This document shows, in pieces, positions 4,167 through 26,642 of a stretch of DNA of 64,000 nucleotides; the stretch's first letter is position 1, and each line of letters begins with the position of its first letter. The stretch spans positions 5,637 through 69,636 of the forward strand of contig JAGCFC010000229.1 of NCBI GenBank assembly GCA_017650325.1, written 5' to 3'. A model generated the notes under the pieces. The model saw nothing but the letters and a program-made list of their open reading frames with translations, was not told where the DNA came from and ran no database searches. Made by a program: the position numbers and the translations under genes. The stretch comes from Salinivirgaceae bacterium (GTDB lineage: Bacteria; Bacteroidota; Bacteroidia; Bacteroidales; SZUA-534).

Positions 4167-6794
4167 ATGGAAACGTTTATCGACAAAATAAAACGGATAT
4201 TTATATATAAGGTGAACAACAGGATAAACTTCACCCCCACCTTGGTTGGTTTGGGCGTGGTGATATTAATTCTGTCGTGGATTTTAGGGTTCATCAAATG
4301 CGACTACGCAGTATCGCTTGACAGCCTTGTACAATTACACAAGACATCACCTGTATACTTCATCATCGATCTTCTGCCTATAGTTTTAGGAATATTGGGG
4401 TATGCATTCACCAAATCGCAGCAAGAAACAATCGATTCACTTGAAACTCAGATTTCGGAAAAAGACCACGTCATCAACATGAACGCCCTCTTTGCCAAGA
4501 AGATTGGTGAAGGCGATCTTGCCGCAAACGACGCCGAAATTGACGACAACGACATCTTAGGCCACTCGCTGAAAAAAATGCGGGAGAACCTTGCTCTGAC
4601 TAACGAAAAAGAGAAAGAACAGAACTGGATTGCTAAAGGAAAAGATATGGTTTCCGACATCCTGCGTTTGCAAAACGACCTCGACAATCTGTCGTATCTC
4701 ACTTTGGTTGAACTCATTAAGTACATCGATGTCATTCAGGGTGCATTCTACATCTACAACGAAGAAGACCAAACACTTGAGAACAAAGCCACTTACGCCT
4801 ACAACCGCAGGAAATATCTCGACACAAAATTCCAAATTGGCGAAGGCCTTGTAGGACAGTGCGCCTATGAGATGGACGTCATCTACCGCCGCGAGATTCC
4901 AGATGAGTTTGTAACCATAACAAGCGGCATTTTGGGCGACAAAAAGCCAAATTCGCTGCTGTTGGTTCCCCTCATCACCGATGAGAAGCTACAAGGTGTG
5001 CTTGAATTTGCATCGCTGAAAGACGATATAAGCGAACTGAAAATCAGATTCTTGAAAGAGTTGAGCGACATTATTGCCCGCACAATCTTCAACCTTAAAG
5101 TAAACACCCGGACAGAAAAACTGCTGAAAGACGCGCAGGAAATGACCGAGGAACTTCAGGAGAACGAAGAAGAGTTGCGCCAGAATGCCGAGGAGATGCG
5201 CGCCACACACGAGGAGCTGGAAAAAACCAACTCGAATCTGCAAACGCAAATCCGCGCTGTCGAAAACGCTCAGAAGCGCCAGCATGCGTTGCTTGAAAAT
5301 GCATCCGAGATTATCTCGATTTATGACGAAGACTTGAAACTTAAATACATAAGTCCGTCAGTAACAAACATCTACGGATACACCATACAAGAAATGATTG
5401 ACGGAAAAGACATCGACCGTCTGACCGCCAAAGGAGTGAAAGAATTCACCGAGACGTTAGCCGAAGTTGTAAAAGATGCCAGTTCAACTGCCACCATCCA
5501 ATACACTTACATGCGTAAAGACGGACAGAAGATTTACATTGAATCGACATGCCGCAACTTGCTCGACGACCCCGCCATCAACGGACTTATTATAAACTCC
5601 CGCGATATCACCGAACGCAAACGCGCCGAGAAAGAGGAGCGTATGAAGAGTAAGATGCAATCGCTATCGGAAAACTCACTCGACTTGATTCTGCGAATCG
5701 GTACCAACGGACAGTTCTTCTACGCCAATCCTATGGTAAAAACATTCACCGGGATTGAAATTTCCGATATCATAAACAAGAATCTCGATGATGTTCAATT
5801 TGAACCGACCATCAAAGAATTCTTCAGCGATGCCGTAAAGACCGTACGAAGCACAAACAACAAACACGAGGCCGAAGTAACCTTCCCGACAAACTTTGGC
5901 GACCGCATTATGCAGGTAAACGCCATCCCTGAGTTCAGCGATGACAACAAAGAGTTGGAGACCATTTTGTTTGTGGCCCACGATATTACCGAGCAGAAGT
6001 TGGTTGAGATTGAAATTCAGGAGAAAAATAAGGCCATCACCGAGAGTATCAACTACGCAAAACGCATTCAAACTGCCATATTGCCGAACACCAAGTTCAT
6101 ACAAGAGTTCCTGCCGAAGTCATTCATCTTCTACCGTCCGAAAGACGTGGTCAGCGGTGACTTCCCATGGTTCTTCAAGAAAGGCGATGACTTGTTTATT
6201 GCAGTTGTCGACTGCACCGGACACGGTGTTCCTGGAGCTTTGCTGTCGTTCATTGGCTACTTCACTCTGAACAATGTGGTTGACCACTACGACAACATTG
6301 ACGCAGGTGTAATTCTCGACAAACTGCATGAAGGCGTCCGCACCACTCTGAAACAAGACCGAATCGACACCGAAGCTCGCGATGGTATGGATGTTGCACT
6401 CTGCAAAATAAACTTGAAGAAAAATATTTTGGAATTCGCAGGTGCCCACAGACCACTTTACTTGCTGAGAGGCAATGAGTTGACCCAATACAAGGGCAGT
6501 CATAAGGCTATTGGTGGCATACCATTAGGTAAAAAACCTGAAGCGGATTTTGAAAATCATTTAATAAATTTGGAGCCCAAAGACAGAGTGTTCTTCTTCT
6601 CCGATGGTTTACCCGACCAAGTGAGCGGCGAGACAGGACGGAAATATCAGGCAAGCCGTATTCGCGATTTGCTTGTGGAACACTATGATGTTGAAATTTA
6701 CGACTATGAAAAAATCATATACGATGATTTCATAGCCTACAAAGGCGACTATAAACAAGTCGATGATATATTGTTAATAGGAATTGAATTTTAA
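4167..6794 (+). CDS. SiaA-like sensor phosphatase: 2TM - GAF - Glu-rich coiled coil - PAS - PAS - PP2C/SpoIIE domain
   Basis: GAF (GEGLVGQCAYEMDVIYRREIP), coiled coil (EELQENEEELRQNAEEMRATHEELEKTNSNLQ), two PAS-like blocks and a SpoIIE signature (AKRIQTAILP...VSGDFPWFF...AVVDCTGHGVPGALLS...DGLPDQ). Confidence 0.85.
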   Translation: METFIDKIKRIFIYKVNNRINFTPTLVGLGVVILILSWILGFIKCDYAVSLDSLVQLHKTSPVYFIIDLLPIVLGILGYAFTKSQQETIDSLETQISEKDHVINMNALFAKKIGEGDLAANDAEIDDNDILGHSLKKMRENLALTNEKEKEQNWIAKGKDMVSDILRLQNDLDNLSYLTLVELIKYIDVIQGAFYIYNEEDQTLENKATYAYNRRKYLDTKFQIGEGLVGQCAYEMDVIYRREIPDEFVTITSGILGDKKPNSLLLVPLITDEKLQGVLEFASLKDDISELKIRFLKELSDIIARTIFNLKVNTRTEKLLKDAQEMTEELQENEEELRQNAEEMRATHEELEKTNSNLQTQIRAVENAQKRQHALLENASEIISIYDEDLKLKYISPSVTNIYGYTIQEMIDGKDIDRLTAKGVKEFTETLAEVVKDASSTATIQYTYMRKDGQKIYIESTCRNLLDDPAINGLIINSRDITERKRAEKEERMKSKMQSLSENSLDLILRIGTNGQFFYANPMVKTFTGIEISDIINKNLDDVQFEPTIKEFFSDAVKTVRSTNNKHEAEVTFPTNFGDRIMQVNAIPEFSDDNKELETILFVAHDITEQKLVEIEIQEKNKAITESINYAKRIQTAILPNTKFIQEFLPKSFIFYRPKDVVSGDFPWFFKKGDDLFIAVVDCTGHGVPGALLSFIGYFTLNNVVDHYDNIDAGVILDKLHEGVRTTLKQDRIDTEARDGMDVALCKINLKKNILEFAGAHRPLYLLRGNELTQYKGSHKAIGGIPLGKKPEADFENHLINLEPKDRVFFFSDGLPDQVSGETGRKYQASRIRDLLVEHYDVEIYDYEKIIYDDFIAYKGDYKQVDDILLIGIEF

Positions 6795-13204: not shown

Positions 13205-13741
13205 ATGGACGAATTCTGCAAACTGAATCAAGGCTTCGATTCCGAAGCCATTAGAAATGCTATGGAATATGCGGCCGACTGCCACATTGGAACCAACCAG
13301 AAATACGACACCCACTCCTACACCATTCACCTAAAAATGGTGTACGACTTTGGTTGCAAATTTGCCCACCTACTCAACGCCGATGAGATTGACACCGCAC
13401 TTGCCGCCTGCTGGACTCACGACACCATTGAAGACACTCGTCAGACCTACAACGATGTGAAAAACCGTTGCGGTGAGGCTGTGGCCGAAGCTGTTTATGC
13501 CGTAACCAACGAGAAAGGCCGCACCCGCGCAGAGCGTGCCAACGACAAGTATTATAAAGGCATACGCGAAAATGAAGTTGCAACATTTGTGAAACTTTGC
13601 GACCGCTTGGCCAACGCCACCTACTCGCTCAATTGCAACCAAAGAATGCTCGATACCTACCGAAACGAGATGCCGCACTTCTGCCAAATGATTTTCAACG
13701 AGCGGTTTAAGCCGATGTTTGAAGAGTTGGAACGGATATAG
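13205..13741 (+). CDS. HD-domain hydrolase, (p)ppGpp-hydrolase-like (HDxxED)
   Basis: The motif ACWTHDTIEDT resembles the RelA/SpoT-type HD hydrolase motif. Confidence 0.6.
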   Translation: MDEFCKLNQGFDSEAIRNAMEYAADCHIGTNQKYDTHSYTIHLKMVYDFGCKFAHLLNADEIDTALAACWTHDTIEDTRQTYNDVKNRCGEAVAEAVYAVTNEKGRTRAERANDKYYKGIRENEVATFVKLCDRLANATYSLNCNQRMLDTYRNEMPHFCQMIFNERFKPMFEELERI

Positions 13742-13813
13742 CAACTGACTTACGCCAAATTTAGCACACAAAGGTAACGTGCGCCGACATGCGTAAAAAA
13801 CCAAACAATTTAT

Positions 13814-13821
13814 TATATTTG
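13814..13821 (+). promoter_or_regulatory. candidate -7 promoter box TATATTTG
   Basis: Perfect TAnnTTTG, 70 nt upstream of the ATG at 13891. Confidence 0.4.
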
Positions 13822-13890
13822 TACGATAACATTGTCAATAGGGAAATGCAAAATTTCGCCATATAATATTGAATATCAAAATATTACAAT

Positions 13891-13930
13891 ATGACCAAAA
13901 AAAAATCTTCTCAAAACCACAATCGCTGCA
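13891..13930 (+). other. ATG and lipoprotein signal-peptide start, out of frame with the gene body as sequenced
   Basis: ATG ACC then A9. With 8 A the reading becomes MTKKNLLKTTIAALAFIASFNSC-KEDEYEF..., in frame with 13931-15418. As sequenced, this frame stops at TGA 13969-13971. Confidence 0.7.
13897..13905 (+). repeat. homopolymeric A9 tract at codons 3-5 of the lipoprotein gene
   Basis: Counted directly: 13897-13905 are all A. Confidence 0.95.
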
Positions 13931-15418
13931 TTGGCATTTATAGCGTCGTTCAACTCATGCAAGGAAGATGAATATGAATTCAAACTGCCCGAAAAAACCA
14001 TTAAGGCTATAAAAGTAAAAAATGGTGCAGTAATTGAGGACACGTTAATAAAGGACTCATACCAACTTAGAGCTGGGTCTTCCGTTCACGATAACATATT
14101 TATAGGCACGTCCATTGATAATTTGGAGAGTTTGTATGAAAACTACAAGTTAAAGCCATATACAAAGTATTATTGGAAAATTGTTGTGACAGATGGCGAC
14201 AACAGTGCAGAAACAGATATTCTGAAATTTTATTGTGTACCGAAGTTCCCTGTTGAAGTTAAAAATGAGGACGAAGATGATTGGTCAGCAACAGTTAAAT
14301 GGAAGAAATACGAACAATTTGGCGACACGCGGATAACCTTAGTCCCTGACAGCGAATGCGATTACGACAAGGTCCCCCCTATTGCTGTTACCAAAGGAGA
14401 ATCGTTGTGCCGCATTTCAGCTGGACCACTTCAAACTCCCAAATATGCAATCTATCACCAATGGTGGGATGATTCGAAAAGACAGTACTACGAACCTGTT
14501 ATCTACGACTTTACAGTTAATGCCGATTGTGAGTTCGATGACACTGTAATAACCGCACAGTCTACCGCAAAAGGCATTTTTCTCAACAAAAGCGTAGCCG
14601 TGGCCGACAAGCAATACAATGTATATAAAATAGGAAAGATTGGCAACAGAGTGTGGATGCTTGAAGACCTGCGTGGAACATTGGATCTTTCAGGTTATGA
14701 CGATTATAACATATTTGATTTTAGACACCGGCAGTGGTGGGCTCCAGGTACCGGTTGTGCAACAGTAAAAAACAATTATGGTTTTAAAAGTGTTGTTTAC
14801 GCTATAAGTATGGCATTATTTTGTGAAGAGTTTAATGAATTAATACCAGAAGGATTTCATCTGGCCACAGATGACGATTGGAATGACATGGAAGCCAACT
14901 ATGGATTGTATAGGAATACTAAAGAAAGGCACTTGCTCAATGTTTCAAATCTAAGGAGTTATTTTCCTGATTATAATTTGGTGACAAAGTATGGTCCAAC
15001 AGAATTACGTGATTACCGATATTCTGAAGACACTACAATTTTTAAAGGCAAAGACTTGGATTTGCTAACCAAACTTATATCAAAGGAGGAATGGAAAAGC
15101 GCATATACCGGTGAAACAATAGCGGGTGCAGGTGTTTTTAATGCAAGACCTTTCGGGCTGTACAAGGCTTATATAGAAGAAAACTATGTTACCATAGGAG
15201 ACGAATTCAATACTAAAAACTTTGAAGAAGGCGGAATTGCCAAAAGCGAAGTGGCTGTATATTTAACTGCCGACACGGAACCAATATTGCGCGTATTGTG
15301 GTCAGGAAACAAAGGTATTGGCAGAGCAGAATATAATTATGACTATTGGGGCAACGAAATAAAAAACTCGAATATTTGGTCTTCAGAATATGTTCAAATT
15401 CGGTGTGTAAAAGATTGA
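13931..15418 (+). CDS. FISUMP-domain (Fibrobacter succinogenes major paralogous domain) lipoprotein body; native ATG and signal peptide frameshifted at the A9 tract
   Basis: NVYKIGKIGNRVWMLEDLRG, IPEGFHLATDDDWNDME and the C-terminal YVQIRCVKD are typical FISUMP signatures. The ORF-track start is a TTG inside the lipobox region. Confidence 0.75.
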   Translation: MAFIASFNSCKEDEYEFKLPEKTIKAIKVKNGAVIEDTLIKDSYQLRAGSSVHDNIFIGTSIDNLESLYENYKLKPYTKYYWKIVVTDGDNSAETDILKFYCVPKFPVEVKNEDEDDWSATVKWKKYEQFGDTRITLVPDSECDYDKVPPIAVTKGESLCRISAGPLQTPKYAIYHQWWDDSKRQYYEPVIYDFTVNADCEFDDTVITAQSTAKGIFLNKSVAVADKQYNVYKIGKIGNRVWMLEDLRGTLDLSGYDDYNIFDFRHRQWWAPGTGCATVKNNYGFKSVVYAISMALFCEEFNELIPEGFHLATDDDWNDMEANYGLYRNTKERHLLNVSNLRSYFPDYNLVTKYGPTELRDYRYSEDTTIFKGKDLDLLTKLISKEEWKSAYTGETIAGAGVFNARPFGLYKAYIEENYVTIGDEFNTKNFEEGGIAKSEVAVYLTADTEPILRVLWSGNKGIGRAEYNYDYWGNEIKNSNIWSSEYVQIRCVKD

Positions 15419-15549
15419 AATATATGGTCATGAAAAGATGATTTGTGTCTGAAAAACACAAATAAAACCGTAGCGGATTTTACGTCTTGCGATAACAAAA
15501 AATATGTATCTTCAATGCTTTAATGTACCATTGTGTTCATTGGCGCACT

Positions 15550-18500
15550 ATGAAGATAAACACACGGAAAATATTGACTACTATTGGCTTGCTGATTGCG
15601 ATTGCAGTTGGGCCTTTGTATGTGTTTGGGCAAAGCACCTACACTCTTGTAACATCGGAAAGCGACCTTGTTGCTGGCGAGGCTTACATAATTGTTGGTG
15701 AAAAAAATGGTGACTACAAAGCAATGGGCAACCAAAAGACCAACAACAGAAATGCTGTGACCGTGACTGTATCGAACAACAAAATATCTACAACTACTGC
15801 GACAGAAGAATCAGATGGAAACAATGTATTCGAGTTCATTTTAGGTGGCACAACTGACAATTGGACAATACAGGATAAAATAAGTTCTAATTATTTATAC
15901 ACGCCTGGAAAATCGAACAACAACTATTTAAAATCAACAAACAAAACCGATAACGATAACGCTATTTGGAGCATTAAAATAGGTTCAAATGGCATTGATA
16001 CCATTACCTCCAAAGATGCAAGCACAAATAACAGTTTAAGGTATAATAGTTCATCATCAATTTTTTCTGGCTATGCTTCCACTTCATCAATGGCCTACGT
16101 TTATCTATACAAGAAAAGCAACGAACCAACAACTGACGAGACTCCTCCAAAATTTTCTACAGATTACCCCAAAACTGAAAACATCACAAAGAACAGTTTC
16201 GATCTAAAGGTGAAAACCGATGAGCCTTGCACAGTTTTCTATAAGGTTGTGGCAGATGGCGGAACGACACCAACGATGGTTGAATTACTGGCTTCGGACA
16301 AAACAATATCGGTTGAAACCAAAAACACTGAATATTCGATAACCGTATCTGAACTTGCATCGGAAGCCACATATAATGTCTATATGATTGCCAAAGATGC
16401 GGCCAACAATGTGCAAGACGACATTACATCAGTCTCTGTCACAACACTTTCAGCATTCGTAAAAACCATCGCTTTAGGCGACATCGAAACTAAATATTAT
16501 TGGGGCGAAACAGCCACAATCAATTGGACTACAAATATTGAAACCGCAACCGACTTAGACAGCATAATCATCTATAAAGGCAACCAAAAGATTCTCAAGT
16601 ACCCAATCGACATAACAAGCCGTGAAGCCGACATTCGGATTGGCAACAGCATCGCACCCGATGGTGACACATACGGCACAGATTATCGGCTGAAAATTAT
16701 AAGCGGCAGTGTTGAGAGCGAATTGTCGGCGAAATTTACAATCGTTCCAACAATCACCATCAACCGATTACTGACAGACATAAACACCGGCCAATCGGAC
16801 TTCATTAATGACAATGTGAGAATGAAAGGACTGGTAACAGGAGTCAAATCGAAAGCCCTTACTATTCAGGATGGTATGGGCGATTTCTGCGCCACATACA
16901 TAACTAACAATACCAACACCAGTGTTGAAATATACGACAGCGTTTATTGGGAAGTGGCTGTAAGTCAATCGGGGGGGTCAATAAAAGCCACAACAAAACA
17001 AGTAACAGTCATCAACAATAACAACCTACCGCAAACTCCCCGAATTACAGAATTGGGCGAAATTGATGTAAACAACGGCCTTAAATACCTTGTTGTGACA
17101 ATTGAAGGTGTTATATGTCAAAACAAAGTCTTCTATAAAGACAACGATGCCATATACTATGTAAACACCTTATTTATAGGCAATAACGGCTATTTTAAAG
17201 AAAACCGGAAATACAACATTTCAGGCGTGCTGAACATAGGCGCAGAAAACAAGAAGGAAATCTGGCCACGCTCACAGGTACCCGAAGATTTTTATCTCTA
17301 TAGCAACGACCCAACTTTAGCCGGACTCACAATTGGCGGGCGCAATGCCATGAGCACCGACACTGTAGTATTTACCGACCTGAATATCAGCGGTATTGCC
17401 GCAACTGCCAACGATGCAAAAGCTTCATTGTCAATAAGAGTCAACAACACAATTATTGCCACTTCCGAATGGGAGGGCTACAACTTCTCCCCGCTCGACT
17501 CGGTTTTTGTGACTGTGACAGCCGAAGACGGCTCAACGAAAACATACAAAAAGGTTATCGATTGCAAAACATTGAAATTCAACACACTTACAAACAACTC
17601 ATTCGAAACTGGTGATGTAATAAATTTATCGTGGACAAGTCACAACATCTCACAAATTAAATTGATACTCGAAATTCAGAACTGCACATTTTCGCTGACC
17701 GAATCGGCCATAAGCGCCGATTTGAGCGGATGGCAATACACCATTCCTAACTCGATATTCGGCGAAGGTACGATAAAAGCCATCGGCAACGAAACTGTCC
17801 TCGACTGTCTCACCATAAACATTGCCGACACAAAAGCACCAACGGTAATACGGCAAAATCCCGAAAACGGCTGTTTCAACGTTAGCAATCAACTGTATAT
17901 CAGCATGGTATACAACGAGCCTATTGTGGTTGCAGATGGCACGAAACTGATAATTAATGACCGTGAAATTCCAATTATTGCTGTCGGCGACACTGCCATA
18001 AAAGCACTGGCCAACGAATTAACATACAATACGTTATACACAATCAGCCTACCAAACAATGCGATATGCGACTTGGCTGGGAATGCTGCCTCGATTGGCA
18101 ATTGGACCTTCACAACCCGGCAAGCCCCACTACCCGACCTCTATTTCAGCGAGTATGGCGAAGGCACAAGCTACAACAAATACTACGAAATCTACAATCC
18201 CTGCGACACGGCAGTCGATTTGAGCCGGTATATGGTGAAACTGGACGCATTCAGCTCAAACGGTACTCGCACTATGAACTTGCTGAAACTTTCGGGTTGG
18301 CTATTGCCAGACGATGTGCTTGTTGTGGTAAACGGCAGCGCCTCTGCCGAAATCAAACAACATGCTGATGTAATAAACTCAAATACAACAAAATTCACAG
18401 GCGATGACCTGCTCGGTCTGTTCCGAAAAGATGGTGACGACACGGTGATGATTGACGTTGTCGCTCCATTTGGCAATTGTGACGTATCAGCGAAATGGGC

Positions 18501-20127
18501 AGTGGCAGGTGTCGAAAACGCATTGGAAGACCATACCATTGTACGCAACATGGTTGTTTGTGGTACAACCAATTGGACAGAATCGGCCGGTACCGACTCT
18601 TTCGATAGCCAATGGACTGTGCTTAACATAGACAACTGGAGCGACTTCGGGCGGCACGGCATTGGGCACGGCACTGAGATAGTTAGAATGAGCATCGAAG
18701 ATGTTGCCGCAACAATCGATAGAGAAAACGCGACCGTTTCCGCCGAAATGCCATACGGCACCGACCTGACGGAATTAAACGCGACTTTTAGACTTTCGCA
18801 AGGCGCACAAATATTTATAAACGAAACACTTGCTACAGAAACAATCGATTTCTCGCAGCCGGTTGTGGCCACAATTGTCGCAGGCGATGGCATTGGACGA
18901 AAAGACTGGACAATAAATGTTACAACAGCGCCAAAACCGAGTTCGGACAATAACATTCTGACATTCAATATTATAGAAACAACACCCGTCAGCGTTGAAA
19001 TTGACACGACGAGCGCCACAATTGATGCCGTAGTTGCTTACAACCTCGACAGTCTGGAACTGACGCCTGTCATTACAATCGCCGAATTTGCCTCTGTTTC
19101 AACCACTTTGTTCAAATCGAGCAAGGGTATATTCACAGCCAAAGCAAGATGGAATTTCGACGAGCCTCAATCATTCGTTGTTACAGCGCAAGATTTAACG
19201 CAAAAGGTTTGGAATGTGAGAGTTAGCCGTGAAACAACTCAAGCGCTGACAATTAAAGAAATTGCCAAACTTGATGGTAACAAAATTGCAGCCGCAGGCA
19301 AACCCATAATCACTGAAGGCGTTGTGAGTCATATTGTTACAACGAAAAAAGGTTTCGATTTTTACATTCAAGACAGTACCGGAATGTGGTCGGGCACATT
19401 GGTGACCAACGTTGACAGTCTGCTTGCCTCAACATTGGCTGTTGGCGACAAAATCAAGGTTTCGGGCATTTTGAAAGAATATTACGGCATGACACGAATC
19501 GAAGAAATTGAGGAGATAACCGTCTTAAACTCAGACAATAAGATATTGACAGACACCATAATTGTTGAAGATGCGCGCTCGAGTGCCTACCAGAATTCCA
19601 TTGTCACGATTGACAGCGTAATTTGCACCGGAGGGTTCGATAACATGTACGCAGTGCGCGACTCGACAAATGGCATTTTCATTTATAACAAATACAGAAT
19701 CAGCGGTTTTGCACTTGAAGTGGATTCGATGTACCGCATCACAGGAATTGTTTACTACACATCGGCCGACGACAGTTACCGAATTGTTCCCCGCTCAGCC
19801 GACGATATCGTGAAACTTAACCGACTGGCCAAACCGAAACCAGAGGAACAACAACCAGTTGAGCCGCAACCCATCGAGCCTCAGCCGCAAGAGCCCGACA
19901 CCACCACGGTTAGCATCGCCGATCAGACCAGCATCGGCTTGACCGCATATGCCATTGGGCACACCATTATTATTGAAAATGCCGATGCAACTGTCACAGT
20001 GTTCGACATTGCCGGAAGTCTTATTGCAACCGCCAATCCAGCGCAACGCATTGTGATAAACGTACCCAAAAACGGCATTTACATTGTCGGCACACGGCAC
20101 GACTCACTGAAAGTTATGGTAAAATAG
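15550..20127 (+). CDS. giant T9SS-sorted surface protein with Ig-like repeats, a lamin-tail-like (LTD) segment and OB-like modules
   Basis: Signal peptide MKINTRKILTTIGLLIAIAVGPLYVFGQ. LTD-like LYFSEYGEGTSYNKYYEIYNPCDTAVDLSRYMV. Linker KPKPEEQQPVEPQPIEPQPQEPD. The C-terminal ~75 aa end in ...GIYIVGTRHDSLKVMVK, like a T9SS type A sorting domain. Confidence 0.8.
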   Translation: MKINTRKILTTIGLLIAIAVGPLYVFGQSTYTLVTSESDLVAGEAYIIVGEKNGDYKAMGNQKTNNRNAVTVTVSNNKISTTTATEESDGNNVFEFILGGTTDNWTIQDKISSNYLYTPGKSNNNYLKSTNKTDNDNAIWSIKIGSNGIDTITSKDASTNNSLRYNSSSSIFSGYASTSSMAYVYLYKKSNEPTTDETPPKFSTDYPKTENITKNSFDLKVKTDEPCTVFYKVVADGGTTPTMVELLASDKTISVETKNTEYSITVSELASEATYNVYMIAKDAANNVQDDITSVSVTTLSAFVKTIALGDIETKYYWGETATINWTTNIETATDLDSIIIYKGNQKILKYPIDITSREADIRIGNSIAPDGDTYGTDYRLKIISGSVESELSAKFTIVPTITINRLLTDINTGQSDFINDNVRMKGLVTGVKSKALTIQDGMGDFCATYITNNTNTSVEIYDSVYWEVAVSQSGGSIKATTKQVTVINNNNLPQTPRITELGEIDVNNGLKYLVVTIEGVICQNKVFYKDNDAIYYVNTLFIGNNGYFKENRKYNISGVLNIGAENKKEIWPRSQVPEDFYLYSNDPTLAGLTIGGRNAMSTDTVVFTDLNISGIAATANDAKASLSIRVNNTIIATSEWEGYNFSPLDSVFVTVTAEDGSTKTYKKVIDCKTLKFNTLTNNSFETGDVINLSWTSHNISQIKLILEIQNCTFSLTESAISADLSGWQYTIPNSIFGEGTIKAIGNETVLDCLTINIADTKAPTVIRQNPENGCFNVSNQLYISMVYNEPIVVADGTKLIINDREIPIIAVGDTAIKALANELTYNTLYTISLPNNAICDLAGNAASIGNWTFTTRQAPLPDLYFSEYGEGTSYNKYYEIYNPCDTAVDLSRYMVKLDAFSSNGTRTMNLLKLSGWLLPDDVLVVVNGSASAEIKQHADVINSNTTKFTGDDLLGLFRKDGDDTVMIDVVAPFGNCDVSAKWAVAGVENALEDHTIVRNMVVCGTTNWTESAGTDSFDSQWTVLNIDNWSDFGRHGIGHGTEIVRMSIEDVAATIDRENATVSAEMPYGTDLTELNATFRLSQGAQIFINETLATETIDFSQPVVATIVAGDGIGRKDWTINVTTAPKPSSDNNILTFNIIETTPVSVEIDTTSATIDAVVAYNLDSLELTPVITIAEFASVSTTLFKSSKGIFTAKARWNFDEPQSFVVTAQDLTQKVWNVRVSRETTQALTIKEIAKLDGNKIAAAGKPIITEGVVSHIVTTKKGFDFYIQDSTGMWSGTLVTNVDSLLASTLAVGDKIKVSGILKEYYGMTRIEEIEEITVLNSDNKILTDTIIVEDARSSAYQNSIVTIDSVICTGGFDNMYAVRDSTNGIFIYNKYRISGFALEVDSMYRITGIVYYTSADDSYRIVPRSADDIVKLNRLAKPKPEEQQPVEPQPIEPQPQEPDTTTVSIADQTSIGLTAYAIGHTIIIENADATVTVFDIAGSLIATANPAQRIVINVPKNGIYIVGTRHDSLKVMVK

Positions 20128-24958: not shown

Positions 24959-25543
24959 TCAGTTTCCGTTTTTGTCTTCAGTCTTCATTTTCAAAAAACA
25001 GCTGCGGCAAAGCGGCTCGTAGCTGTCGGTTTCGCCAAGAAGGACAAGTTTGTCGGTTTTGGCAAGACGATGCGAAAACTGCGCCAGCGCACCGCAGCGA
25101 ACGCATACGGCGTGAACTTTAGTCACATCGTCAGCAATGGCCATAAGTTTGGGAATCGGGCCGAAAGGCTTACCCGTATAATCCATATCGAGTCCAGCCA
25201 CAATAACACGCACGCCGCTGTTGGCCAACTGGTTGCATACATCAACAAGGCCATCGTCGAAGAATTGAGCCTCATCGATACCCACAACCTGCACACCACT
25301 TGCCAAAAGCAGAATGTTTTGTGCGCTATCCACCGGTGTGGACGAAATAGAATTGTCGTCGTGCGACACCACATTCACTGCCGAATAACGGACATCGACA
25401 GTGGGCTTGAAAATTTCGACACTCTGCCGAGCAAATTTTGCACGTCGTAAACGGCGAATCAGTTCTTCGGTTTTGCCCGAAAACATTGAGCCACAAATAA
25501 CTTCGATTCTTCCGCCGTCGGCATTGCCACTTTCCAAAAACAT
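24959..25543 (-). CDS. tdk: thymidine kinase
   Basis: [19 protein letters not shown]-loop and C-terminal Cys pairs (AVCVRCG...CRSC). Confidence 0.95.
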
Positions 25544-25592
25544 ATCAGTACAAAAAATTAGGTGTGCGACAATTCTTATTTTAAGTTATCGT

Positions 25593-25600
25593 TATTTTTG
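25593..25600 (+). promoter_or_regulatory. candidate -7 promoter box TATTTTTG
   Basis: Perfect TAnnTTTG, 25 nt upstream of the ATG at 25626. Confidence 0.45.
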
Positions 25601-25625
25601 GCAAAATAAATCTTTATCGAAAGCG

Positions 25626-26642
25626 ATGCAAACAAAAAATCTAATCAAAATAATCAAGGCCGAGGCGACGGTTCTTGTGTCATTGATAGAGAACCTGCCC
25701 GATGATGGCAATGTTCAGAGCTATGAAGTTGATATGCTGATAAATAAAATTCAGGCATTGAATAATATTGCCGTTCATCTATCGTCCGACAATGCCGATA
25801 TTGAGTCTGATAACGCTTCCGCGATAGCCGCCGAAGAAGCAGCCCGAAAGGCCGCTGAAGAGGAAGAAGCACGGCTCTTTGCCGAAGCCGAAGCGGCAAA
25901 ACGAGCAGAAGAACTCGAAGCCGAACGAAAAGCCGCTGAAGAGTTGGCTCGCAAGGCTGCCGAAGAGGAAGAACGCAGAATTGCCGCTGAAGAAGCCGCG
26001 CGTAAAGCTGCCGCAGAAGAGGAAGCTCGTAAGATTGCAGCCGCCGAGGCTGCAAAACGGGCCGAGGAACTTGAAAAAGTCCGTCGGATTGCCATTGAGG
26101 AAGCCGAGCGAAAGGCCGCCGCTGCCGAAGAAGCACGCAAAGCCGCCGAGGAAGCTGCACGAAAGGCCGAAGAAGAGACCAAAAAAGCCCAATCGTTGGC
26201 CGATATGTTCGCCGACAACACAGCCGATGTTGAGCAGACATACAACGCTGAAAATGAACAGCAAGCGGAATCTTCCGCAACAACCGAGACTGCTAAAACC
26301 GAGGCAAAACCAAGCACTCTTGCCGACAAGTTCCAACAGAACACGCCGTCGGTGAACGATGTTTTGGCCGGACTTGAGAAAAAGGCAAATCTGGCATCAA
26401 AATTCAACAGCCGGCCCATCACCAACCTGCGAAAAGCCATCAAAATCAACGACCGCATACGGTTCATAAACGAACTGTTCGACCATGACAGCCAGCAGTA
26501 CGAACTTACCATCGACGATATTGAAAATTCGAAAGACATTAACGAGGCATTAGACAAACTTTTCAGTAGCCGTAGATGGAATCAGGAAGACGAGACCACA
26601 GTCGATTTTCTTGAGCTTGTTTATCAACGCTTTAAGGCATAA
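25626..26642 (+). CDS. hypothetical protein with ~135-aa Ala/Glu/Arg/Lys-rich helical repeat region
   Basis: Start chosen at MQTKNLIKIIK because the track's 5' extension overlaps tdk. The central region reads AAEEAARKAAEEEEARLFAEAEAAKRAEELEAERKAAEELARKAAEEEERRIAAEEAARK... Confidence 0.65.
   Translation: MQTKNLIKIIKAEATVLVSLIENLPDDGNVQSYEVDMLINKIQALNNIAVHLSSDNADIESDNASAIAAEEAARKAAEEEEARLFAEAEAAKRAEELEAERKAAEELARKAAEEEERRIAAEEAARKAAAEEEARKIAAAEAAKRAEELEKVRRIAIEEAERKAAAAEEARKAAEEAARKAEEETKKAQSLADMFADNTADVEQTYNAENEQQAESSATTETAKTEAKPSTLADKFQQNTPSVNDVLAGLEKKANLASKFNSRPITNLRKAIKINDRIRFINELFDHDSQQYELTIDDIENSKDINEALDKLFSSRRWNQEDETTVDFLELVYQRFKA

Follow-up and report, generated by a model that had tools for sequence, protein, structure and literature searches.

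Why should a lipoprotein gene whose body is intact begin with a homopolymer that throws it out of frame? The question is raised by a stretch of 64,000 nucleotides from a Salinivirgaceae bacterium (assembly GCA_017650325.1, contig JAGCFC010000229.1, forward strand, positions 5,637 to 69,636), referred to below as the window, in which the ATG at 13891 is followed by ACC (13894-13896) and then by nine A's (A9). Read from this ATG, the sequence reaches a TGA at 13969-13971. In the +1 frame the reading, ..KKNLLKTTIAALAFIASFNSCKEDEYEF.., stays open up to a stop at 15416-15418, and with eight A's (A8) the reading becomes MTKKNLLKTTIAALAFIASFNSC followed by KEDE, joined in frame to an open reading frame (ORF) of 495 codons. 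The original prediction, a slipped-strand ON/OFF switch, was built on these readings; all were found again in the sequence, and A8 is in frame in relatives. It had also stated that the 495-codon ORF has only an internal TTG start, which holds, and that it has no export signal, which is probable. We considered TTG 13931 as a functional start and rejected it: the only residues left up to the Cys would be MAFIASFNSC, a stretch that lacks a charged n-region and contains 6 hydrophobic residues, and export from such a start is unlikely. Predicted products are of very different sizes depending on tract length, 505-515 aa for A8, 16 aa for A7, 26 aa for A9 and 28 aa for A15. The NCBI annotation, a 495-aa hypothetical protein starting from the internal TTG, conceals the signal peptide and the frameshift alike.

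The tract is the longest homopolymer of the window and lies in the 5′ coding region, where it is long enough to count as a slippage-prone mononucleotide run (about 7 or more). A-runs of 4, 5, 6, 7, 8 and 9 nucleotides number 347, 115, 51, 14, 3 and 1, respectively, and since these counts decay about threefold per added base, a single A9 in 64 kb is roughly what is expected. What sets the tract apart is where it lies and that it is polymorphic, not that it exists. Five other genes of the window start with an MKK signal peptide (38821, 39623, 41277 and 52034 on the + strand, 31692 on the − strand); all begin ATG AAA AAG, where the A-run ends at 5, and Lys codons in the window are AAA and AAG in a ratio of 826:406. 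This suggests that ordinary secreted-protein genes of this genome avoid long A-runs at their 5′ end.

A sequencing error, kept as an alternative in the original prediction, is excluded for A9, because the identical tract is present in 10 further metagenome contigs (L001-L005 and L025-L029), five per body haplotype, from several ruminant-gut assemblies and samples. The exact 495-aa protein of the window is encoded on eight more contigs, with A9 in 5/5 of those inspected, and a 96% identical protein (P0001, also called from the internal TTG) on five metagenome contigs, all of them A9 with an identical upstream region. Identity of these A9 contigs to the window is ∼97-99.98%, over as much as 11 kb; some of them may stem from repeated assembly of a single sample. 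Net frame-breaking indels in ∼90 kb of aligned flanking sequence were found only in the lipoprotein gene. Assembly quality was also checked on the ORF overlaps elsewhere in the window, which proved to be ordinary adjacent genes; two apparent frameshifts, 22857-24143/23801-24925 and 24950-25450/25401-26642, were discarded on this ground, as they correspond to a radical-SAM and DUF4130 gene pair and to a minus-strand thymidine kinase.

Relatives were collected through protein look-ups and the tract region was then read on their contigs, giving a census of 21 sequences (the window and 20 contigs of the same gene pool). Lineage 1, with the 5′ sequence ATGACC-An-TCTTCTC, comprises 11 A9 sequences including the window, two sequences with A8 and the tract in frame (L006, L008), one with A8 and an inserted T (TCTTCTTC; L007, OFF) and one with A7 (L030). 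Lineage 2 occupies the same locus, with the same synteny, and reads ATGAC-An-CACTCTTC; A8 is in frame in one member, with an intact gene of 515 aa (L009, a metagenome-assembled genome, or MAG, of GTDB), and the others carry A7 (L031 and L032, from two JGI metagenomes), A9 (L033, L034) or A15 (L035). To account for the census, tract length must have changed independently at least 5 times. Some of these changes separate close neighbours: L009 (A8) and L031 (A7) have 0 mismatches out of 63 nt upstream and 4 out of 300 downstream, and L033 (A9) and L035 (A15) have 1 out of 63 and 8 out of 300, meaning that both length differences sit on flanks only ∼1-2.5% divergent. Both lineages have kept the in-frame A8, the codons around it being ACC AAA AAA AAT in one and ACA AAA AAA ACA in the other, and distant orthologues or paralogues have no tract (MNTNLFK.., MKRK..). 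Exact-pattern scans of GTDB genomes and JGI metagenomes for the tract and its flanks, using patterns specific to lineage-1 flanks, returned no match. A pseudogene with A9 fixed in all related strains, the other alternative kept in the original prediction, is at odds with relatives that carry A7, A8, A9 and A15. Length polymorphism on otherwise intact genes is the comparative signature that slipped-strand phase variation would leave.

The gene bodies behind the out-of-frame tracts were then compared. In every fully covered OFF allele the body is uninterrupted over 486-489 codons, and whichever two alleles are compared, also two in different OFF states, the ratio of nonsynonymous to synonymous substitution rates (dN/dS) of the body falls within 0.12-0.30, against 0-0.27 for flanking genes. 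Five distinct OFF bodies contain 201 segregating sites and zero stop codons. As 5.9% of random substitutions make a stop, this has a probability of ∼5×10−6 if the divergence was neutral, and of ∼0.3 if only a tenth of it was. The signal-peptide segment, which is untranslated when the gene is OFF, also stays open with conservative substitutions, the lipobox Cys and K-E-D-E being kept. The window allele has a single lesion, a low dN/dS and no stops; the several lesions and the dN/dS near 1 of a decaying pseudogene were not seen. An exception to the intact bodies is the allele shared by L006 and L037, where the loss of one T at 14962 is a second lesion. Judged from these substitution patterns, the bodies diverged almost entirely as translated ORFs, and in relation to that divergence the present OFF states are young. 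Young OFF states on constrained bodies are the pattern that a reversible switch predicts.

We propose, with a probability of about 0.6, that the A-tract is a homopolymer frameshift contingency locus, providing ON/OFF phase variation of a surface lipoprotein in ruminant-gut Bacteroidales (‘Salinivirgaceae’). When the poly(A)/poly(T) run is replicated, strand slippage would add or remove one or more A's. With A8, ATG 13891 and the TKK of the n-region would be joined to the rest of the signal peptidase II (SpII) signal peptide, and the product would be exported, presumably lipidated at Cys23 and displayed at the surface. With A7, A9 or A15, only a peptide of 16-28 residues would be made, leaving the body without a usable start or export signal. 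Back-slippage would be expected to restore the ON state, and such reversible slippage would explain why the bodies of OFF alleles are intact and constrained. The slipped-strand switch of the original prediction is supported by comparative evidence, namely the four tract lengths in relatives and the constraint on OFF bodies.

Several points weigh against such a switch. The 5′ haplotype of the window is A9 in 11/11 sequences, and within lineage 1 tract length co-segregates with haplotype, which fits one inherited mutation. L009 is the only fully ON allele: the second frameshift of the lineage-1 A8 allele, the T missing from a T4 run, is found in two assemblies (L006, L037), and L007 is OFF through a T inserted beside the tract, not in it. 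The exact A8-repaired proteins of 508 aa (window type) and 505 aa (P0001 type) are absent from a collection of 15 billion proteins. Independence of the contigs is limited, some having possibly been re-assembled from the same samples. Finally, indel rates in A-tracts of bacteria proficient for mismatch repair (MMR) can be low, ∼5×10−7 for the A6 to A7 change in inlA (PMC2831843), and a rate of that order would speak for a mutational hot spot more than for phase variation of the classical, high-frequency kind. As one in-frame allele has a second frameshift, plain inactivation of the gene may be a component alongside the switch.

Taken further, this component becomes an explanation in its own right: inactivation would be recurrent and effectively one-way, the lipoprotein being dispensable or disadvantageous in the rumen, possibly as a target of phage, protozoa or antibody. 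The A-tract would then be no more than the most mutable site of the gene, and the A9 of the window a young pseudogene. The difference with phase variation lies mainly in reversibility. Full ON status in only 1 of ∼8 allele states is readily understood in these terms, as are the uniformity of A9 on its haplotype, the independent loss of a T on the lineage-1 A8 allele, the breakage of L007 outside the homopolymer and the missing A8-repaired proteins. The intact OFF bodies, with their low dN/dS and 0 stops in 201 sites, would nevertheless require each knockout to be very recent. Moreover, four tract lengths, some of them on near-identical flanks, imply a rate of change at which back-slippage is mechanistically expected, and the signal-peptide stretch of OFF alleles is still open and conservatively substituted. 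We consider one-way inactivation less probable than a switch, yet a serious rival to it.

Slippage could also take place in expression, rather than in replication. Transcriptional slippage on runs of at least 9 A's is established in Thermus dnaX, in insertion sequence elements and in endosymbionts. A +1 slip of RNA polymerase or of the ribosome within A9 would yield the exact ON protein (MTKKNLLK..), and tracts of at least 9 A's may plausibly leak to some extent. If transcriptional slippage, or ribosome sliding on AAA codons, were the whole explanation, expression would be leaky or graded and ‘OFF’ would mean ON at a low level, in keeping with the predominance of A9 and A15 alleles whose bodies are constrained. 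However, the intact A7 alleles (L030, L031, L032) are too short for efficient transcriptional slippage, and no out-of-frame length is conserved (7, 8, 9 and 15 are found), unlike at programmed recoding sites. In-frame A8 alleles exist as well, and distant orthologues do without the tract. We regard this explanation as improbable. It is also unlikely that the tract acts as a rheostat, polymerase slippage or ribosome sliding on A9 to A15 restoring the frame in a fraction of messages that depends on length. If it did, the prevalent ‘OFF’ alleles of rumen populations would express the lipoprotein at low, tunable levels, a homopolymer-based control of a surface protein that has not been described for Bacteroidales, the known switches of that order being DNA inversions only.

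Last, the general suspicion that the true sequence is A8 has very little left in its favour, for although homopolymers are error-prone and the single-contig states (A7 in L030, A15 in L035, A8 plus T in L007) come from short contigs, A9 recurs across different assemblers and different samples, A7 was found in two JGI metagenomes, A8 is also returned by the same platforms, and neither the ∼90 kb of flanks nor the ORF overlaps of the window show comparable lesions.

The lipoprotein gene is a recombination mosaic among strains, with a synonymous divergence (dS) of ∼0.15 versus 0.01-0.07 in the upstream flanking genes. The mosaic region, 13968-14800, has in-frame indels, one of 6 nt (13968) and one of 3 nt (14373, inside a C6 run), and includes a block, 14705-14790, that is hypervariable. 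Two contigs, L008 (5467-6430) and L007 (1103-1240), lose collinearity with the window at about 14705-14793, L008 running on into an Fe-alcohol-dehydrogenase gene. We considered the L008 fusion and the divergent end of L007 as additional lesions of the gene and rejected them; they are probably chimeras, made in assembly from a mixture of strains at the block that varies most among them. The sample that gave L008 also yields another contig, L037, in which the lipoprotein gene continues.

Table 1. Coordinates of the features of the lipoprotein locus in the window.
Feature	Position	Strand	Remarks
Candidate Bacteroidetes-type −7 element TATATTTG (TAnnTTTG)	13814..13821	+	Sequence match; putative function
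ATG start of lipoprotein gene	13891..13893	+	In-frame alleles L006, L008 and L009 begin here and read MTKK..; M1 invariant in family alignment
A9 homopolymer, codons 3-5	13897..13905	+	OFF length; in-frame length A8; relatives A7, A9, A15
Out-of-frame 26-codon reading MTKKKSSQNHNRCIGIYSVVQLMQGR*	13891..13971	+	Predicted product of the A9 state; ends at TGA 13969-13971
Rest of SpII signal peptide, in body frame, NLLKTTIAALAFIASFNSC	13904..13960	+	Open and conservatively substituted in all OFF alleles
495-codon ORF as sequenced	13931..15418	+	TTG start, probably no export signal; identical to NCBI MBO7497368.1, ‘hypothetical protein [Salinivirgaceae bacterium]’
Lipobox F-N-S-C	13949..13960	+	Codon of predicted lipidated Cys at 13958-13960
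K-E-D-E directly after Cys	13961..13972	+	Matches Bacteroidetes lipoprotein export signal K-(D/E)2
Two tandem FN3/Ig-like beta-sandwich domains	14000..14575	+	AlphaFold model, residues ∼24-215 of the 495-aa ORF
FISUMP region (Fib_succ_major, PF09603/TIGR02145)	14636..15205	+	Profile matches just under curated cut-offs

The features of the locus are listed in Table 1. In the A8 frame the N-terminus reads MTKKNLLKTTIAALAFIASFNS-C, that is, a positive n-region, a hydrophobic h-region and a lipobox ending in Cys. In an alignment of 20 family sequences the match of the repaired N-terminus starts at Met1; no variation occurs at Cys23 or Asn21, and almost none at A15, L16, F20 and S22. The family pattern at the lipobox and export motif is FNSCK[EK][DKE][DE], and the lipoprotein export signal of Bacteroidetes has been defined as K-(D/E)2 (PMC5080379). 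On these signals, the product is most likely a surface-exposed lipoprotein, with lipidation and exposure both predicted. Its assignment to FISUMP, made in the original prediction, is close to threshold: most of ∼50 homologues, the majority annotated from Salinivirgaceae or other Bacteroidales MAGs of the ruminant gut, have a precomputed PF09603 match, and the A8-repaired protein itself scores just below the cut-offs, with 32.7 bits versus 33.9 for PF09603 (E 1×10−7) and 35.0 versus 41.65 for TIGR02145 (E 2×10−8). An AlphaFold model was made on the 495-aa ORF of the window (mean predicted local distance difference test, pLDDT, 76.7; predicted template modelling score, pTM, 0.76). In this model the mature protein consists of two FN3-like domains followed by the probable FISUMP domain, and the PDB matches found with Foldseek are tandem FN3 domains (E 5×10−6 to 1×10−3). 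The FISUMP domain has no PDB relative by sequence.

Upstream of the gene, the −7 box described as perfect in the original prediction is indeed present, on the right strand and inside a 149-nt intergenic gap. TAnnTTTG is kept as TAAATTTG in the lineage-1 alleles L006 and L008, and TAAATTTG is also found upstream in lineage 2. The motif occurs 48 times in the window versus 49.9 expected, i. e. without enrichment, and because it is at chance frequency the match taken alone is weak; the weight of this candidate box comes only from its position and from TAnnTTTG being kept in other alleles. A scan for sigma-70 promoters and intrinsic terminators gave shuffle-level results and was uninformative, sigma-70 being the wrong promoter type for Bacteroidetes. 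An invertible promoter (inverton), the usual mechanism in Bacteroides, was ruled out at the lipoprotein gene: 0 pairs of inverted repeats were found in 13500-14200, and none flank the promoter.

The intergenic region is itself variable. The A9 haplotype has an A-run of A6 at 13791-13796, ∼20 nt ahead of the −7 box, where L006, L007 and L008 have A5, and L030 has a 15-nt deletion at 13775-13795, just upstream of this run. In L033 a promoter segment of ∼36 nt, AATTGATTAAATTTGCAAAAATAACATTATAAAT, is tandemly doubled (∼470-620, with the ATG at 618), placing two TAAATTTG −7 boxes before A9; L034, which encodes the same protein, has a single copy. The duplication may represent another variable element, at the level of the promoter, or else a difference in assembly.

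Downstream, a gene of 1534 aa (15523-20127) encodes Big_5 and lamin-tail domains, with weak matches to ExeM/NucH-like nucleases and to an OB-fold. Its dN/dS between strains, 0.22-0.27, is the highest in the neighbourhood, and the terminator scan gave no clear terminator between it and the lipoprotein gene. Further away, a 413-codon ORF on the + strand (25401-26642) has no Pfam match; several long ORFs overlap there on both strands, and the AT skew of this stretch is extreme (0.43 at 26000-26499).

The mechanism proposed here is well known; the points of interest are the taxon and the natural populations dominated by OFF alleles. If confirmed, the locus would clearly exemplify phase variation through a homopolymer for a surface lipoprotein of Bacteroidales, an order in which promoter inversion is the textbook mechanism, and tools designed to find invertons would miss such loci. 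It would also mean that uncultured rumen bacteria keep a surface protein mostly OFF in natural populations, a sign that some agent (phage, protozoa or antibody) selects strongly against lipoproteins of the FISUMP family.

Among known systems, the nearest in taxonomy is the switching of capsules and SusC/D-like proteins by invertons in Bacteroides. The order-level taxon is the same and so is the stochastic ON/OFF control of surface molecules, but the candidate switch described here is a frameshift in the coding region, with no inverted repeats at the promoter. A recent review presents phase variation in Bacteroides as invertase-based only (PMC11868660). In literature searches we found no demonstrated switching of the simple sequence repeat (SSR) type in Bacteroidales, only a speculation on a C-run in B. 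fragilis (PMC3090145). The contingency loci of Campylobacter, Haemophilus, Neisseria and Helicobacter work on the same principle, mononucleotide slippage inside a gene toggling the frame of a surface-structure gene whose OFF alleles are intact. Their tracts are mostly poly-G/C or tetranucleotide repeats, many per genome, often in organisms without MMR, whereas a poly-A tract at one locus was examined here. In Thermus thermophilus, the A9 of dnaX is a programmed transcriptional slippage site. RNA polymerase can add or drop an A on such a run and change the frame, and the A9 studied here is alike in this respect; programmed sites, however, have a fixed, conserved length and serve two needed products, whereas the present tract is of 7, 8, 9 or 15 A's and an in-frame allele exists.

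Two poly-A systems come closer. In Listeria monocytogenes, inlA carries a 5′ poly(A) tract that is in frame as A7; A6 gives a product truncated to 8 aa and reverts at ∼5×10−7 (PMC2831843). As at the present locus, the homopolymer lies at the 5′ end of a gene for a surface protein, and natural populations contain both in-frame and out-of-frame lengths, which arose independently several times. Unlike inlA, usually discussed as an inactivation with possible reversion, the tract described here is longer (8-15) and is expected to be more mutable. The closest precedent is vaa of Mycoplasma hominis, in which a 5′ poly-A tract is ON as A8 and OFF as A7 or A9, with switching at 10−3 to 10−4 (PMC524362, citing Zhang & Wise 1997). 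The vaa system belongs to the Mollicutes and its switching was measured, whereas the present locus, known from sequences alone, is from Bacteroidales, concerns another protein family in a rumen commensal and includes an A15 allele. The correspondence is otherwise close: a lipoprotein gene with poly-A in its 5′ coding region, in frame as A8 and terminating early as A7 or A9, and, in both genes, a mosaic, recombining body.

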